This document shows positions 4,653-49,742 of a stretch of DNA of 64,000 nt, piece by piece. Origin of the DNA: a virus (lineage: Duplodnaviria > Caudoviricetes); the IMG/VR virus record IMGVR_UViG_3300002895_000002, positions 149,117 through 213,116 of that record, one strand, 5' to 3'. The notes under the pieces are model-generated. The model worked only from the letters and a program-made list of their open reading frames with translations, was not told where the DNA came from and made no database searches. The translations under genes were made by a program, and so were the position numbers. Position 1 is the stretch's first letter. The number at the start of each line of letters is the position of its first letter.

Positions 4653-4939
4653 TGAAACAAACATGTGGCGGGTGTTATAAATTTAGTAGGGACTCATTAA
4701 TATTTCATTGGGGATTGTGTTCCGTCAACAAAACCAAAAGACGGGACAACTGGACATGTGACGTCCAAAGAACAGGAGAAAGTGTTATGACAATCAAAGT
4801 GAAACATGTGGAAGGTGTGGTGGTTTGCCCGAAGTGTAGAGGGATCGGTGCAGAGATCCAGCATGATGGCAGTAAGCACTGGTGCAGGATGTGCGGAGGC
4901 GGCGGCCAACTCCTGGAGAATGATAACGTTTCCGAATAA
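4652..4939 (+). CDS. Cys-rich zinc-finger protein(s); possibly two genes, with a second start at 4787
   Basis: CGGC, CPKCRGIG and CRMCGGGG motifs; internal AGGAG RBS before the ATG at 4787. Confidence 0.5.
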   Translation: MKQTCGGCYKFSRDSLIFHWGLCSVNKTKRRDNWTCDVQRTGESVMTIKVKHVEGVVVCPKCRGIGAEIQHDGSKHWCRMCGGGGQLLENDNVSE

Positions 4940-4942
4940 TTC

Positions 4943-4971
4943 TTGACAAATCCTCCCGAATCTGTTATTAT
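4943..4971 (+). promoter_or_regulatory. Sigma70-type early promoter
   Basis: TTGACA-N17-TATTAT with TGn extension. Confidence 0.8.
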
Positions 4972-4998
4972 TGAATAAAATGGATTCGGGAGGATTGT

Positions 4999-5768: not shown

Positions 5769-6160
5769 ATGAAGATCAGAGAGTTTTCCAAAACATCTTC
5801 GAAAAGAAACGTGAGCTTCGGAGAACCATTGCTTCCCTTGAGAGCATCATTGATTCCAAGGTAGAGATCATCGATGAGCTCAAGCGGCAGGTCAGTGAAG
5901 CACAGGAAGCCCTTTCCAAGAAGTACGAGGACTGGGCCGATGAAGCAGTGATCGACTTTGAAGGGCTGAAGGTCGTCAGTGTGGAACGGTTCTACCGTGA
6001 AAATGCTGACATGCCGAATACCACCATCGGTTATTGGGGTGTGGACGGTGACGGGAACCCCAAGATGAAGGAGTGGATCCTGTGGATCTCCCCTGAAGAG
6101 CACAAGAAGATCGCCGCTGATTTCAGAGCATATCTGGCTAAGAAAGGAGCAAACGAATGA
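5769..6160 (+). CDS. Hypothetical coiled-coil protein, frameshifted at the T4 run 5784-5787
   Basis: RBS AAGGAG plus ATG at 5769; adding one T gives MKIREFFQNIFEKKRELRR..., continuous with ORF 5948..6160. Confidence 0.6.
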
Positions 6161-42004: not shown

Positions 42005-43276
42005 ATGAAGATGAATTTTACACGAGATTATTTGAAGAATATCTTTTCGACTTCGATACCTGATGCATTACTTGAACATGTTGATTCTTCTAAATGTTTC
42101 GTGGTTGGTGGTGCGGTACGTGATATCCTCTTAAATATTCCTTACAATGACATAGATATAACCGTTTCAATCAATGAACAGGAGTTTAATGAACTTCCTT
42201 TTGAAAAAGTTGGAAAAAAATTCCCGGTTTATATCGTCGATGATAAAGAAGTTGCGCTAACAAGAACTGAGCGTTCAATAGGTAATGGTCATAATGCATT
42301 TGAAATTGTATCAACGGGTGTTTCCATCGAGTCTGACTTAGCCAGACGCGATTTCACGATTGGATCTTTAGCGATTGATTGTAAAGGTAACCTCATCGAC
42401 CCATTCGGCGGTGTGGAAGACCTGAACAGCCGCAAGCTCCGCGCTGTGTTTCCGGCAGCATTCCAGGAAGACCCCATCAGGATCCTCCGTGGTTGCCGCC
42501 TTGCCGCAAAGCTTGACTTCACTTTCGAGAGCAGAACCGCCGAGTTGATGTACGAAGCTGCTCCGCTGCTTGAAGGTGAGCGGAAAGAGATGATCGTAGT
42601 TGAACTCGAGAAGATGTACAAGCAGTGTGAAAAGCCGTCCGAGTACTTCTACCATCTCGCGAAGGTAGGTGCACTCGAGTACGTCTGTAGACCGCTCTTT
42701 GCTCTTCTCGGTGTTATCGCCGGTCCTGTCCAGTTCCATCACGACGAGCATGGGAACGAGATTACCGCTTTCGACCACACGATGTACGTGATCGACCGCT
42801 GCAAGGCCAATGGGTACAGCTTCGAGGTGTTCATGGCTTGTGTTGCTCATGACTTCGGCAAGGCAACCACCCCGACAGAGATCCTCCCTCATCACTATGG
42901 GCACGAGCTGCGGTCTGCTGGGATTGCCAACGAGTTCTTCGAGAATCACCGGTTCTCTGCTCGGACCAAGAAGCTGGCCATCAAGGCAGCCAAGCACCAC
43001 ATGAGCTTTCACTTCCTGACCCAGATGAAGCCACTGAAGATCGTGCGGTTTCTCCGATCGCTTCCGAGAGACCTCTTCTTCGAACTCATCGAGGTGGCTA
43101 ACTGCGACCATCCGCTGACTGAAGAGCAACGTGTCATTATCTTCAGGTTCCTGGATGCGGTCAGACAAACTCCCATCGAGGTTCCTGAGCGAATCAAGAA
43201 AGATGGGAAGAAAATAGCAGAGTTCATCGATAATGAAATCACTAAAACGTTCAAGCAACTAACGAAAGGAGTGTAA
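42005..43276 (+). CDS. cca: tRNA nucleotidyltransferase (CCA-adding enzyme) with HD domain
   Basis: VVGGAVRDILL..DIDI, DLARRDFTI, EDPIRILRGCRLAA, AHDFGK. Confidence 0.9.
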   Translation: MKMNFTRDYLKNIFSTSIPDALLEHVDSSKCFVVGGAVRDILLNIPYNDIDITVSINEQEFNELPFEKVGKKFPVYIVDDKEVALTRTERSIGNGHNAFEIVSTGVSIESDLARRDFTIGSLAIDCKGNLIDPFGGVEDLNSRKLRAVFPAAFQEDPIRILRGCRLAAKLDFTFESRTAELMYEAAPLLEGERKEMIVVELEKMYKQCEKPSEYFYHLAKVGALEYVCRPLFALLGVIAGPVQFHHDEHGNEITAFDHTMYVIDRCKANGYSFEVFMACVAHDFGKATTPTEILPHHYGHELRSAGIANEFFENHRFSARTKKLAIKAAKHHMSFHFLTQMKPLKIVRFLRSLPRDLFFELIEVANCDHPLTEEQRVIIFRFLDAVRQTPIEVPERIKKDGKKIAEFIDNEITKTFKQLTKGV

Positions 43277-43280
43277 TCAA

Positions 43281-43439
43281 ATGGATCTTCAAATCGCATG
43301 CCCGAAATGTGGTGCACAACTCACAAGCCCCGAGGACCGTCCGAAGATGGTGGTTGTAACAGGAGAACAGGTCGAAATGAACTGTGAAGTATGTTCAGGA
43401 ACGTTCAAAGTCCATATTAGTATAGCAGAGAGGACCTAG
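43281..43439 (+). CDS. Small zinc-ribbon protein (52 aa)
   Basis: CPKC...CEVC; AAAGGAG RBS. Confidence 0.6.
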   Translation: MDLQIACPKCGAQLTSPEDRPKMVVVTGEQVEMNCEVCSGTFKVHISIAERT

Positions 43440-43496
43440 ATATAACCCTTCTGTTAAAGTCTTGTCAAATGTCTGATTTTGTTGTTTAATTTGTAT

Positions 43497-44114
43497 CATT
43501 TGTGCTTGCATTTTTCACCGTGCCATCTTCCAAATGATCCGGGTTCACATGCTTTGCCACAGTATTTGCATATTCGTTTTGGTACTCTTTGTTTTCCTGA
43601 GATAATGTTATCTATATGTGATTTTGGTAATTTTTGTTCTTCATACGAATACTAGCTGCTGTTTTGAATTCATCAGACATTGATTTGCCTTTATTCCAAG
43701 AAGGTCTTCCTTTTCTAGTAATAGACATTTTTTGTTTGGTTTCTTCTGAGGCTTTTCTATTTTTCGCTTTTTTGATATCCGCTGTTTGGTTTCTTCTGAG
43801 TGAGAATAGTTTAGTTTGAGCCAAGTATATTTTCTAGAATTATATCTACCATTTGTAGACATCATTTTGAATGCTTTTGCCATTCTTGGGCCCTTAGCTA
43901 TATGACCTCGCCATATACGGGCAAGAAGCAGATGGGCGATGAAATGTTCACGCAAAGGAAGGTTGACTCGATTCCAGGAACCGTTAATATCTTGAATTCC
44001 ATCAAGCTTTGCGAATGAACGAGGGATGATGTGATGGTCTTCCGTTTGTTTCTTGATCCTGGGAGTGTTTCTGTTTCGTTTGATGATGCGGTCGTAGATT
44101 GCTTGGTAATCCAT
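43497..44114 (-). CDS. HNH homing endonuclease (family member 2), broken by two homopolymer indels
   Basis: N-terminus nearly identical to the 32751 gene. Adding one A at the runs 43768-43773 and 43631-43635 restores NUMOD3 repeats and a C-terminal CKYC...WHGEKC finger. Confidence 0.8.
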
Positions 44115-44126
44115 GACATTCTCCCT

Positions 44127-44219
44127 GATAAATAGATGTGACCGGGACAGCGGAGATATTCTCCCCTCCGTTGGCTGTCGACCCCCATCGCAGCCTTACC
44201 GGTTCCATTCTTATTTATA
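44127..44219 (+). ncRNA. Putative HEG-associated three-way-junction RNA, copy 2
   Basis: Covarying stems, conserved GACAG/TT/TTA junction segments, flanking convergent late promoters. Confidence 0.75.
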
Positions 44220-44225
44220 AATCTA

Positions 44226-44254
44226 TTGACATTATCAAGAAAAGAACATATAAT
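44226..44254 (+). promoter_or_regulatory. Consensus sigma70 promoter
   Basis: TTGACA-N17-TATAAT. Confidence 0.9.
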
Positions 44255-44276
44255 CAAATAAAAAAGGAGAATGAAA

Positions 44277-44534
44277 ATGGCAATGAAACCTGTTCGGACT
44301 GGCGTGAAACCTGCAACAGCGTTGAAGGCAATAAAGGAATTCTGCATCGAATGCATGGGCGGCGACAAGAAAGAAGTCGAACATTGCACCGCCCCTAAGT
44401 GTCCGCTCTTCGACTTCCGCTTCGGAAAGAAGCCGGGCAAGGGTGAAAAGAGTGACAAGCCCAAGCGGGTTCTGAGCGAAGAAACCAAGGCTAAGATGGC
44501 CAAGGCCAGGGAAGCCAAGAAAAAGAAGGTGTAG
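44277..44534 (+). CDS. Small basic Cys-containing hypothetical protein
   Basis: AIKEFCIECMGG...CTAPKCPLFDFRFG; Lys-rich tail. Confidence 0.65.
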   Translation: MAMKPVRTGVKPATALKAIKEFCIECMGGDKKEVEHCTAPKCPLFDFRFGKKPGKGEKSDKPKRVLSEETKAKMAKAREAKKKKV

Positions 44535-44535
44535 T

Positions 44536-44668
44536 ATGGAAGAGAAACCCTACATTTATCGAACTGCTCATTACCATCGCCATCATCGGCATTCTCGCCG
44601 CCATCATCATCCCTGCTCTTGCACCGGTCGGTAAGGTGATCACTACCGGTATCAGTGCGGCATTCTAA
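44536..44668 (+). CDS. Type IV pilin-like membrane peptide; needs a 1-nt correction in the first 5 codons
   Basis: TFIELLITIAIIGILAAIIIPALAPVGKVITTGISAAF* in the +1 frame relative to the ATG at 44536. Confidence 0.6.
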
Positions 44669-44795
44669 GGAGACACCATGCTAACTCTCGAATTATTGGC
44701 TGCTTTAGCCAAGACAGTTTCAATAATGGGCGGGGTTGGTATCATTCTTGCTGCTGTCAAAACTGCATTCTAAGGAGACACCATGCTAACTCTCG
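44660..44795 (+). repeat. 31-bp perfect direct repeat (44660-44690 and 44765-44795)
   Basis: GCATTCTAAGGAGACACCATGCTAACTCTCG occurs twice, 105 bp apart. Confidence 0.95.
44678..44773 (+). CDS. 31-aa hydrophobic peptide
   Basis: AAGGAG RBS; MLTLELLAALAKTVSIMGGVGIILAAVKTAF. Confidence 0.55.
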   Translation: MLTLELLAALAKTVSIMGGVGIILAAVKTAF

Positions 44796-45238
44796 GAACA
44801 CTGTTTGCACTCATCCTCATCGGTCATCTCATCGGCGACTACTTTGTTCAAACCGAGTACCAGGCCACAACCAAGAAGTTTCCCTGTACTGAAGGGCATC
44901 TCGCTTGTGCCATCCACTGCCTCACCTACTCGTGCACTGTGGTAGCTACCATCATGATCCTCGGGAAGTGGCTCTGTGACATCGACATCAGCTTCTACCA
45001 GCAGCTTGCCACGTTCGGTCTGGTCTATCTCAGCCATTACCCATTCGACCGAACCAACATCATCGGCAAGCTCATGGCACTAAAAGGTCTCGTCAAGCCG
45101 CCGGTGCTCGACATGAAGAACAGCACGAGCCCGAAGGACATCCTGGATGTCACCAAGTACTTCGTGGTGTACGTCGTGGCAGACAACACGGCTCATCTCT
45201 TCTTCATGACACTCTTCCTCGGCTTCCTGCTTCTGTAA
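44783..45238 (+). CDS. DUF3307-like membrane protein
   Basis: GHLIGDYFVQT, HC..Y, SHYPFDR, DNTAH. Confidence 0.75.
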   Translation: MLTLGTLFALILIGHLIGDYFVQTEYQATTKKFPCTEGHLACAIHCLTYSCTVVATIMILGKWLCDIDISFYQQLATFGLVYLSHYPFDRTNIIGKLMALKGLVKPPVLDMKNSTSPKDILDVTKYFVVYVVADNTAHLFFMTLFLGFLLL

Positions 45239-45251
45239 GAAAGGAATAATA

Positions 45252-45824
45252 ATGGGATCACTCAGTTTTTTCGACCTCTCAAGGTATAAAGGTGATGTTC
45301 TGGTGGAAACCGGAACTGGAATGGGGTATGGTGTTGACTATGCTCTGAACAGTGGTATTCCTAAGGTTCACTCCTGTGAGGTCTACGATGAGGTCTTTCA
45401 ACATGTGACGAAGAGATATGAGAACGACCCTCGGGTAGAGATCTATCAGCAATCCAGCATCTATTTTCTGGACAATCTCCTGCCCCAGATACCCAAGGAC
45501 TCCCGTATCGTCTTCTGGCTCGATGCTCACTTCCCTGGTGCTGACTTCATCACTCATCAGTACAAGAGTGACGACAATGAAATCAACCTGCCGCTCGTGC
45601 ATGAGGTCGATATCATCAAGAAGCATCGAGCCGGCTGTTCGGACGTGATTCTCATAGATGACATGCGGATTCTCGACCCGTATGACAGAGCAACCCTGGA
45701 AAGTCTCGGTCTCTTCCTGAACTACCCAGGGCTCAGTTTCCTCGACGACTTCAAACCTACCCATCACATCGCCAAATATTTCGTTCATCAGGGATATATT
45801 GAGCTGGTGCCGGTGGACCTATAA
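45252..45824 (+). CDS. Class I SAM-dependent methyltransferase-like protein
   Basis: LVETGTGMG, FWLDAHF, ILIDDMR. Confidence 0.7.
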   Translation: MGSLSFFDLSRYKGDVLVETGTGMGYGVDYALNSGIPKVHSCEVYDEVFQHVTKRYENDPRVEIYQQSSIYFLDNLLPQIPKDSRIVFWLDAHFPGADFITHQYKSDDNEINLPLVHEVDIIKKHRAGCSDVILIDDMRILDPYDRATLESLGLFLNYPGLSFLDDFKPTHHIAKYFVHQGYIELVPVDL

Positions 45825-45831
45825 AAAGTTC

Positions 45832-45860
45832 TTGACATCCCAGACCTCCTCTGTTATTAT
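45832..45860 (+). promoter_or_regulatory. Sigma70-type early promoter
   Basis: TTGACA-N17-TATTAT. Confidence 0.8.
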
Positions 45861-45886
45861 GGAAACACAATACAGAGGAGGCTTCC

Positions 45887-46126
45887 ATGAGTACAGAGTT
45901 TGTTTGGCCAGATTTCGGAGTAGGCATCAGGGACATCGTGGTGAAAGAAATGCCCTACTCTGAGATGCGGGCAGCTTTCAACGAGATGGCAGGCATCACC
46001 AAGTTCCTCACAGCGGACATCGGTTGGTCGGACATGATCCTTCGGTTCGACGATGACCGTAAGTTCGACGAAGCCGCAAAACTCCTGACTGCTGCTAACA
46101 TGCCATGGGAAGAGAGGGAAGCATGA
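45887..46126 (+). CDS. Hypothetical protein
   Basis: GGAGG RBS. Confidence 0.6.
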   Translation: MSTEFVWPDFGVGIRDIVVKEMPYSEMRAAFNEMAGITKFLTADIGWSDMILRFDDDRKFDEAAKLLTAANMPWEEREA

Positions 46127-46401
46127 AAGTTTCAGGCCACAAGAAGATGGTTGCGGAGTTGTTCGTGACCGTGGATGGATACACCGTCAGGTTCAACGAT
46201 CTCTTCGAAATCGTTGAGGAACTGATGGATTGCGACGGTTTTACTGAAGCGGTGGTCATCTATAGCGATGAAGTGGCTCTGCTCTTGGGTGCGGGTGGAT
46301 ATGCTCGTAAGAACTCCCGCGGTTCCTGGTACCGGACGGATAAGACCGAGGCACTTTATGATGAACTCGGTCGGCTTGATGATTTTCCGATGAAAGGCTG
46401 A
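46123..46401 (+). CDS. Hypothetical protein
   Basis: ATGA coupling to the previous gene. Confidence 0.55.
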   Translation: MKVSGHKKMVAELFVTVDGYTVRFNDLFEIVEELMDCDGFTEAVVIYSDEVALLLGAGGYARKNSRGSWYRTDKTEALYDELGRLDDFPMKG

Positions 46402-46402
46402 T

Positions 46403-46609
46403 ATGTACTGCACGAACTGTATGGGTAGGGTTCACGAAGTAGGTCATAACATTTCCACTGACCACGAAGAGACCCAGTTCTCCGAGTGTTATTGTGGAAG
46501 AATCTCGTCCATAGTCTATCCTTATGACGGAGATGAACGCATCCTTTTCGTTGGCCTTGCTCTCACCCCGTCGGAGAAGGCACTCTACGGAAACATTGAG
46601 GTTGATTAA
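46403..46609 (+). CDS. Small zinc-finger protein
   Basis: CTNC...CYC. Confidence 0.55.
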   Translation: MYCTNCMGRVHEVGHNISTDHEETQFSECYCGRISSIVYPYDGDERILFVGLALTPSEKALYGNIEVD

Positions 46610-47006: not shown

Positions 47007-47216
47007 TGAACACTCCGTCCAAAGTTCGTTTTATAAAGAAGGCGTCCATCGATCAGATCCGCTGGGGGGAGCAACGATGACCCGAATGACCTCCTTGAGG
47101 TTGGTAAAGTGTACGATGTTGAGGACTGGGAAGTACACTCCTGGCATACCAAGGTGCATCTGAAGGACTTCCCGGGTAAGCGGTTCAACTCGGTGAACTT
47201 CGAGGTGGTCGAGTGA
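47006..47216 (+). CDS. Conserved phage hypothetical protein, frameshifted at the G6 run 47064-47069
   Basis: Removing one G gives IRWGSNDDPNDLLEVGKVYDVEDWEVHSWHTKVHLKDFPGKRFNSVNF. Confidence 0.55.
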
Positions 47217-49299: not shown

Positions 49300-49742
49300 A
49301 TGTCGCTTGTTCCTGTCGTCAGAGTCAAACTGGTCAAAGAAGGTAACGTTCGCACCACTGATAAGCGGTTCACCTCTCCTGAGCAAGTAGCCGAAATGGC
49401 CCGGGCCTTTTCGACGACACCGACCGTGAAATATTCGCCGCGTTCTATCTGAACGGTAAAAACCAGATTTCGGGTGTAAACGAGGTCAGTGTCGGTTCCC
49501 TCAACCAATCAATCGTTCATCCCCGTGAAGTATTCAAAGGTGCTCTCCTCGCTAACGCGGCGGCGGTCATTCTCGTTCACAATCACCCTACCGGTGACCC
49601 CTCTCCCAGTCAAGAAGATAAAGAAATCACCCGCAGACTCAAAGCTGTAGGTGACGATCTTGGCATTCGGGTTCTGGATCACGTGATTGTCGGTGATGGT
49701 ACCGAAAATTATATGAGCTTCTGTGATAGTGGGTTGATTTAG
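49300..49742 (+). CDS. radC: RadC-like JAB/MPN domain protein, frameshifted at the T4 run 49408-49411
   Basis: Adding one T restores VGSLNQSIVHPREVFKGALLANAAAVILVHNHPTGDPSPSQEDK...VLDHVIVG. Confidence 0.85.

Follow-up and report, generated by a model that had tools for sequence, protein, structure and literature searches.

The virus record IMGVR_UViG_3300002895_000002 (213,116 bp; rated complete by CheckV) belongs to a phage of the Caudoviricetes, and we analyzed a stretch of 64,000 nucleotides (nt) of it, bases 149117-213116, which we refer to as the window. On the plus strand of the window, positions 44552-44668 hold a reading frame for a peptide that resembles the N-terminal helix of type IV pilins. 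Translation, the profile TIGR02532, and homologs in other phages identify this frame as the body of a very small pilin (here termed a mini-pilin), from mature Thr2 to Phe39 followed by a TAA stop codon; it has no start codon. An ATG at 44536, one base out of register with the pilin frame, opens a different open reading frame (ORF) of 32 amino acids (aa) that is rich in histidine and arginine and ends at 44634. The original prediction, which a model made from the letters of the window, joined the two by postulating a slip of one base and proposed that the product might be a decoy that jams pilus assembly. The 213-kb genome encodes a T4-type Gp23 major capsid protein (351.6 bits) and a Gp24-like paralog, and no tyrosine integrase was found in it; because of this combination we regard the source virus as a large T4-like phage that is presumably virulent.

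Results

Pilin-Like Reading Frame

In frame 2 of the plus strand, the translation runs ...WKRNP-TFIELLITIAIIGILAAIIIPAL... and ends in AAF ahead of the stop codon at 44666-44668. Glu5 (44561-63), Gly14 (GGC, 44588-90), and Pro22 (CCT, 44612-14) fall in register at the canonical positions of a mature type IVa pilin. The peptide scored 20.4 bits against TIGR02532 (IV_pilin_GFxxxE; cut-off 16.3 bits) and 19.6 bits in a six-frame profile search of the whole 213-kb genome, in which 44552-44668 was the single pilin-type match. The alignment of the window copy is confined to positions 5-24 of the profile, the G-F-T/S-L part being missing, and the Pfam profile N_methyl (PF07963) gave 17.6 bits, under its cut-off of 21.2 bits. 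No Peptidase_A24 (prepilin peptidase) is encoded in the 213-kb genome.

Frame 2 contains no ATG, GTG, or TTG from the preceding stop codon (~44492) up to a GTG at 44636. Neither a Gly-1 nor a basic leader is present before the helix of the window copy, the codon for Phe1 has been lost at the junction described below, and no globular alpha-beta head follows alpha1, the family ending 17 residues past Pro22. As it stands in the contig, the window copy is not a translatable gene, since ATG 44536 starts another ORF in a different frame. Non-canonical initiation at the in-frame codons ATC, CTG, and ATT (44558-44572) was considered and rejected, as no ribosome site lies within range.

Intact Mini-Pilin Genes in Related Phages

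A word-indexed protein search with the frame-2 peptide returned one match, a 47-aa protein on a Logan contig. A search with the DUF3307 protein encoded downstream, followed by retrieval of the encoding contigs, yielded five further loci, and an exhaustive profile search added one more divergent locus on a contig of 754 nt. The gene is intact in five related contigs from four divergent lineages (L002:5001-5144, L003:4857-4991, L006 and L007:4855-4989, and L158:489-623). Members of the family were found in uncultured T4-like phages (~210 kb) of sediment and biofilm metagenomes, and the contigs of these relatives also bear T4-type genes.

The intact product is a prepilin of 44 or 47 aa. It consists of a short basic leader (MKRN or MKRLRKN), the sequence Gly-1/Phe+1-Thr-Leu-Ile-Glu5 across the peptidase site, a hydrophobic helix with Gly14 and Pro22 (both invariant across the family alignment), and a conserved tail of ~17 residues that is rich in small residues and ends ..PALAPVGK..AAF. 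The mature form is 39 aa long and has no globular head. Against the whole TIGR02532 profile the intact homologs scored 36.8-38.2 bits, and they also have precomputed PF07963 matches. The window peptide is 76-84% identical to the syntenic intact homologs, and synonymous changes dominate among the nucleotide differences. Pairwise ratios of nonsynonymous to synonymous substitution rates (dN/dS) lie at 0.04-0.35 within the family, with dS near or beyond saturation for the deeper pairs, and at 0.09-0.35 between the window body and the intact homologs. Because of the full-profile scores and the dN/dS range of 0.04-0.35, we conclude that the mini-pilin gene is, by these measures, real and under purifying selection.

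The order of genes at the family loci is a CCA-adding enzyme, a CPKCG zinc ribbon of 49-52 aa, a small zinc-ribbon ORF, the mini-pilin, and DUF3307. The DUF3307 start always lies 9-10 nt past the mini-pilin stop codon, and the junction of AAF and stop, AAGGAGAC, and ATG is found in all relatives. The occurrence of intact homologs in syntenic phage contigs is the strongest evidence that the pilin helix encoded at 44552-44668 goes beyond a chance resemblance, and this observation is confirmed. The original prediction had thus correctly recognized a pilin N-terminal helix with Glu5, as the register of Gly14 and Pro22 and the TIGR02532 score also show, and a headless phage-borne pilin-like coding sequence, of which the relatives encode the intact 44-47 aa prepilin.

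The family is rare. In a profile search of 1.84 billion representatives, only two family clusters (P0006 and P0015) aligned over all 44 positions, among 115,151 pilin-type matches. Profile scans of IMG/VR, of JGI metagenomes, and of species genomes found only ordinary full-size pilins (115-531 aa) matching the helix, and P0001 had no tblastn match among 50,697 deposited phage records in a search with the low-complexity filter on. The module is not present in more distant phages whose CCA enzyme is <=48% identical. Nothing useful came from scanning IMG/VR with the DUF3307 protein or the 87-aa protein of this locus singly, or from a degenerate DNA pattern for the family tail, and blastn of the region against deposited phages returned a match to a homing-endonuclease fragment only.

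At two further loci (L004:2712-2862 and L005:2541-2691), a C run of the mini-pilin (..CACC-CCCTCCC..) is short by one lost base, which frameshifts the gene in its middle. The called product is 37 aa long, and the family tail (..GKVIATGIKAAF, then stop) runs on in another frame. Assemblies of two runs from a single study share this sequence. Judged from the assembled contigs, it is a second, independent inactivation of the mini-pilin.

Junction with a Zinc-Ribbon ORF

A fuzzy search with positions 44531-44555 matched L003, L004, and L005 at a place 131-141 nt upstream of the mini-pilin, at the start of a small ORF that had not been called. This ORF encodes 39-46 aa with four cysteines in a zinc-ribbon-like arrangement (MEEKPYIFRVC..C....C..C...); it is conserved in L003, L004, L005, L006, L007, and L158, and it fills the supposed intergenic gap of 130-140 nt between a 51-aa gene and the mini-pilin. 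By translation it lies at L003:4728-4847 (~39 aa, ending just before the mini-pilin ribosome site), L004:2582-2701, L006:4708-4842, and L158 ~342-482. A broken copy, with a stop at codon 3 and one cysteine lost, lies at L002 ~4870-4992. All Pfam zinc-ribbon matches to the small ORF were below threshold.

Positions 44536-44557 of the window are the first seven codons of this zinc-ribbon ORF (MEEKPYI), with 21/22 nt identical to L004 and 20/22 nt to L003. The same stretch agrees with the 22 bases that end at the junction site of the pilin, which comprise most of the leader coding sequence, at only 9-10/22 positions without gaps. From 44551 to 44600, in turn, the window is identical at 45/50 nt to the L003 mini-pilin body from TACAC onward. 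The two matches meet at TACATTTATCGA (44551-44562), which corresponds both to TACATTTTTCGG of the zinc-ribbon ORF, in codon phase 0, and to TACACTCATCGA of the mini-pilin, in codon phase 2. The match to the relatives requires no insertion or removal of a base on either flank of the junction.

These matches are readily accounted for by a deletion of ~131-141 nt in this phage between two short similar stretches (TACAyTyxTCG). Such a deletion would have removed the rest of the zinc-ribbon ORF together with the AAGGAG site, the ATG, the leader with Gly-1, and the Phe1 codon of the mini-pilin, and it would have joined the first seven zinc-ribbon codons to the pilin body in the wrong frame, leaving the pilin frame without initiation. 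A distance of 131 nt in L003, and of 141 nt in L004 and L005, separates the two TACA sites, which differ in codon phase: TAC is a whole codon in the zinc-ribbon ORF but spans two codons in the mini-pilin. A deletion between them must therefore fuse the genes out of frame, as is seen in the window. The product of the fusion, the 32-aa ORF at 44536-44634 (MEEKPYIY and then the pilin body read in the wrong frame), has no Pfam match, has no identical product on record elsewhere, and is probably meaningless. About a dozen bases at the junction resemble each other in the two genes, a microhomology far too short to mislead a k-mer assembler, and we therefore take the deletion as real.

We conclude, with a probability of about 80%, that 44552-44668 represents the 3' four-fifths of a mini-pilin gene, a remnant that was inactivated recently. 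The window copy is most likely a dead remnant and not an evolved uncleavable mimic. Two details of the original prediction have to be revised. It described the G/F peptidase site as altered; the site is absent, apparently deleted with the leader. It also placed a single-base slip between ATG 44536 and the peptide; the zinc-ribbon ORF begins with that ATG and accounts for the first 22 bases. The zinc-ribbon match likewise ruled out a version of the family gene in which one base had been inserted after the ATG and three lost at the Gly-Phe codons.

Comparison with Contigs of Public Runs

We compared contigs from four public runs with window positions 43000-46500; among RNA data sets, none was listed as containing this stretch. 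A contig of 4,071 nt from run X1, a freshwater-sediment metagenome, matches 44551-44689 with its last 139 bases (138/139 identical), and it has a separate piece of 25 bases on 44531-44555. The spacing from its CCA-gene piece is 621 nt, which equals the spacing in L003. The X1 contig joins 43257 to 44531 without the homing-endonuclease gene that interrupts the window. In the 7,097-nt contig of run X3, the run from which L003 stems, the corresponding piece starts at 44551, which is the TACAC at L003 position 4874. L003-like spacing and separate pieces are the pattern predicted for an undeleted arrangement, and X1, the closest known relative, thus appears from its contig to keep the full gene. 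Since a relative as close as this (138/139) seems to retain the undeleted spacing, the deletion would be recent, and a recent loss would account for a pilin body that is still without a stop codon.

Alternative Readings

The alternative that survives best, although we consider it improbable, is that the real phage carries a live in-frame fusion and that one homopolymer base was miscalled (e.g., CCC for CC, or TTT for TT). The product would be a leaderless, uncleavable membrane peptide of ~43 aa (MEEKP.. joined to IELL... and continuing to AAF), which would still lie in the membrane and either mimic a pilin helix or partner DUF3307. In its favor, an AAGGTG ribosome site lies 4 nt before ATG 44536, the stop-free pilin body is nearly identical to that of X1, and at least three other small genes of the contig have single-base homopolymer frameshifts where relatives are intact. 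Compared with L006, a Y07B-like gene is frameshifted at a G6 run (47063-47068), where G5 restores the frame, and a RadC-like gene is frameshifted at a T run (49400-49410), with T4 where T5 restores the frame; these differences may be sequencing errors or real pseudogenes. At 5770, an ATG with a strong ribosome site (TAAGGAGAACAAATG) opens an ORF of 31 aa, and coding continues in another frame to 6160 with no start, probably through a single-base frameshift in a T/C/A homopolymer stretch at ~5785-5800. All three sites lie in homopolymer contexts, and the indel noise that the original prediction suspected in the contig thus has a basis. Codon usage, scanned crudely for frameshifts, was too noisy a signal for estimating their rate but pointed to the case at 5770; the larger ORFs that we checked are all intact. 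Set against a live fusion, the relatives have flanks of just the same length on each side of the junction, so that the sequence is fully explained without an indel, and a deletion between TACA sites that differ in codon phase is expected to yield an out-of-frame product. Moreover, with an acidic N terminus and neither Gly-1 nor Phe+1, the product could not act as a pilin substrate.

We regard as highly improbable the proposal of a single gene that starts at ATG 44536, whose peptidase site evolved from G/F to N-P so as to make a dominant-negative decoy, and which is one base off through noise. It draws on the indel noise just described and on the result of dropping a G at 44538-39, which gives MKRNPTF.., similar to the family leader MKRNGFT... 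However, ATGGAAGAGAAACCCTACATTT starts a different conserved ORF (MEEKPYIF..C..C), which lies 131-141 nt upstream of the pilin TACA in L003, L004, and L005. Reading that ORF out of frame gives WKRS in L003 and WKRN in L004, and the real pilin leader lies further downstream in both. The likeness of WKRNP to MKRNG is accidental, because it comes from the MEEKP of another gene read out of frame.

From ~44495 to 44668, across the end of the upstream 87-aa gene, frame 2 is open, and the overlap includes a run of lysine codons with an A_AAG A-site slippery motif. Recoding could in principle add a frame-2 C-terminal membrane anchor to the 87-aa protein, by -1 slippage at G_AAA_AAG (44519-44525), or could act through a +1 slip at CCC_T in translation from ATG 44536, and we judge the prospect remote. 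The heptamer has G as its first base and does not conform to the canonical X_XXY_YYZ, and no stimulatory structure was seen, although none was looked for. The junction itself would be the product of a recent deletion and occurs in none of the relatives, leaving no time for a signal to evolve. The chance that an alternative frame merely happens to resemble a pilin helix is negligible: hydrophobic helices are of low complexity and N_methyl stays under its gathering score, but TIGR02532 is above its cut-off, syntenic homologs are intact at 76-84% identity, and the end of the frame (AF and stop) belongs to the conserved junction with the next gene.

Several considerations nevertheless weigh against the view that 44552-44668 is the dead remnant of a gene of the proposed kind. 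Given the homopolymer frameshifts elsewhere in the contig, a slip within AAACCCTACATTT would restore an in-frame leaderless fusion. The deletion junction is known from the assembled contig, and the intact leader of X1 is deduced from spacing and piece boundaries. The pilin body is free of stop codons and nearly identical to an apparently live allele, which fits a recent loss but would also fit continued use. The loss in L004 and L005 means that the gene is dispensable in some settings, and the function of the intact gene, like that of every phage pilin stub, is hypothetical.

Neighboring Genes

Downstream of the pilin frame, positions 44783-45238 of the plus strand encode an intact polytopic membrane protein of 151 aa with a DUF3307 domain (PF11750, 29.5 bits, cut-off 23; phrog_2470, "membrane protein"). 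It is rich in histidine and aspartate and is 69-94% identical to the homologs that follow every mini-pilin, with 94% identity to that of L003. An AlphaFold model built with five sequences was unusable (predicted local distance difference test score [pLDDT] 48), a sequence search of the PDB gave nothing, and prediction of a complex of mini-pilin and DUF3307 scored 0.00 and gave no answer.

Between the pilin remnant and DUF3307 lies a hydrophobic mini-ORF of 31 aa (44678-44773, plus strand), which is bounded by an exact direct repeat of 31 nt. The first copy of the repeat (44660-44690, plus strand) comprises the last two codons and stop of the pilin frame (AF and stop), the AAGGAG ribosome site, and ATG with MLTL of the next gene; the second lies at 44765-44795. 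L002-L007 lack the 31-aa ORF, as does the X3 contig, where 44659 is followed by 44765, but the X1 and X2 contigs have it; the X1 copy has three conservative changes (A>V, A>V, and K>R). It shows no significant similarity to the pilin body, and it looks like a mini-gene that was inserted or duplicated at the mini-pilin/DUF3307 junction.

Directly upstream, a gene for an 87-aa cysteine-rich basic protein (44271-44534, plus strand) has its stop codon one base before ATG 44536. The protein has a CxxC...C....C motif and a lysine-rich tail that resembles NUMOD3, and it is 69% identical over 68 residues to the product of an 84-aa gene in L006, where that homolog is followed by the full zinc-ribbon ORF and the mini-pilin, with no deletion. 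The end of the 87-aa gene (AAG GTG TAG) resembles the end of the 51-aa gene of L003 (AAG GTG AAG TAA), and in both cases the zinc-ribbon ATG comes directly next. Further upstream, on the minus strand, is an inserted homing-endonuclease-like gene with a NUMOD3 motif (43641-44114) that matches a "putative homing endonuclease" of a Vibrio phage and is absent at this place in L003-L007. Together with the 87-aa gene, it separates the window locus from the 52-aa gene described next.

The CCA-adding enzyme (423 aa, 42005-43276; PolyA_pol, 72.9 bits) and the 52-aa zinc ribbon (CPKCG...CExC, 43281-43439) occupy 42005-43439 of the plus strand and are the conserved upstream anchors of synteny (L002-L007 and L158). 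In L002, two minus-strand DUF7487 genes interrupt the CCA gene, which is left in pieces of 143, 118, and 145 aa (L002:2202-4547); the split looks like invasion of the homing-endonuclease type.

Discussion

The intact mini-pilin has all the features required of a substrate of a prepilin peptidase, with nothing added. Its class III signal peptide is complete, and it should therefore enter the pilin pathway itself. After insertion in the inner membrane, it would be cleaved and N-methylated by the prepilin peptidase of the host. The resulting bare alpha1-N stem of 39 residues could enter, weaken, or cap the filament, occupy the assembly platform, or compete for the peptidase, so that a type IV pilus, a type II secretion pseudopilus, or a competence pilus would be shut down in the infected cell. 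The phage might benefit through superinfection exclusion, or because its progeny would be spared adsorption to doomed cells. We propose such filament interference tentatively as the function of the intact family, at somewhat less than even odds.

The mini-pilin may act jointly with the translationally coupled DUF3307 membrane protein, and the constancy of the coupling at the sequenced loci suggests a joint function. In a fuller version of this idea, which we consider rather unlikely, the two would form a two-part module, in which the processed 39-residue stem, among the shortest of prepilins, would be handled by DUF3307 or work with it, and the pair would disable a type IV filament machine of the host (pilus, type II secretion, or DNA uptake); the window would then be a natural knock-out of the pilin half that retains DUF3307.

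Truncated pilins are already known in phages. In assembled pili, the hydrophobic core is built from the N-terminal helices and the surface from the head domains, and truncated PilA-like proteins (P-PilA, the N-terminal ~60 residues) are found in six virulent Pseudomonas phages, where headless incorporation into the pilus or a block of assembly has been proposed as a means of superinfection exclusion (PMC12952977). The mini-pilins resemble P-PilA in being encoded by non-temperate phages, in having little beyond the pilin N-terminal helix, and in the roles proposed, which are equally hypothetical. They differ in being shorter (a 44-47 aa precursor, 39 aa when mature), in having a tail of their own, and in being coupled to DUF3307, and the window copy is broken. 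The likeness seen between them is that of the shared pilin helix, and the tblastn search of deposited phages described above, run with its low-complexity filter on, did not connect the two. The decoy or dominant-negative mimic of the original prediction is the same hypothesis as has been published for truncated phage PilA, but it probably does not apply to the window copy, which is most likely dead.

Prophages can also use full-size pilins against other phages: FimU-like minor pilins (P-FimU) of F10-like prophages of P. aeruginosa enter the pilus and block phages that bind its tip (Sztanko et al., Cell Rep 2026; PMC12952977). Like the mini-pilin, P-FimU is a phage-encoded structural component of type IV pili. 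In contrast to it, P-FimU has a globular domain, is made by a prophage, and replaces the tip FimU without harming the pilus, whereas the family described here is headless and comes from a genome of virulent type.

The best sequence matches among solved structures are Geobacter PilA-N proteins (Geopilin domain 1; 2M7G, 6VK9, 7TGG, and 9EGP; E values 2e-13 to 2e-10), over residues 3-30 only. PilA-N is likewise a naturally short pilin with a partner encoded by the adjacent gene. It is, however, a cellular protein of 61 aa when mature, with an alpha1-C, and its partner PilA-C is soluble and head-like, not a polytopic DUF3307 protein. Of the suggestion that the gene is a captured short pilin of the Geobacter type, the sequence similarity to PilA-N stands, but the 61-aa form with alpha1-C and the PilA-C neighbor were not found.

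Some small phage inhibitors of type IV pili, such as Tip of D3112, are not pilins. PfsE of Pf4 (PMC8764522) and Aqs1 of DMS3 (PMC13436744) are of this kind as well. Like the proposed action of the mini-pilin, these small proteins switch off pili to exclude phages, and PfsE is an inner-membrane peptide of ~30 aa; unlike the intact mini-pilins, they lack a prepilin signal and bind PilC or PilB. More broadly, phages repeatedly encode short pilin-like proteins. The intact homologs match phrog_13280, phrog_10597, and phrog_11263 (59-72 positions) and phrog_3433 ("pilin") with E values of 1e-7 to 7e-6; the likeness covers the N-terminal helix only and leaves the tail unmatched, and none of the short pilin-like PHROGs is annotated with a function. 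Phage pilin stubs were already in print in 2026, and among them the present family is set apart by its very small size, its conserved tail, and its DUF3307 partner.

The pilin-like peptide had also been read as a hint of a piliated Gram-negative host, which it need not be, since Gram-positive bacteria have prepilin-type proteins too (ComG). In a pattern-limited scan, the bacterial N termini nearest to the family (..LAAxIIPTVGK..) belong in most cases to proteins of 227-269 aa of Verrucomicrobiota, mostly Opitutaceae (L161, L163, L171, L172, and L188), and Sulfurimonas pilins were also frequent among the matches to the family N terminus. The likeness to Verrucomicrobiota is a weak hint, biased by the pattern, to the origin of the gene or to the host. 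DUF3307 is absent from the four bacterial genomes with the most similar pilin N termini and hence gives no clue to the host.

For annotation, the locus is a caution that an ATG with a good ribosome site beside an attractive out-of-frame peptide can be the scar of a deletion that fused two genes and not a sequencing slip. For the biology of these phages, the wider interest lies in the filaments themselves, since type IV pili and related structures serve phages as major receptors and hosts as weapons. Phage pilin stubs may be a widespread means of switching off type IV pili, and this locus supplies a defined family of them, with a precursor of 44-47 aa, a canonical peptidase site, a tail, and constant coupling to DUF3307. 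Two independent inactivations, the deletion proposed here and the loss of one base in L004 and L005, would imply that the gene pays off only in some hosts.

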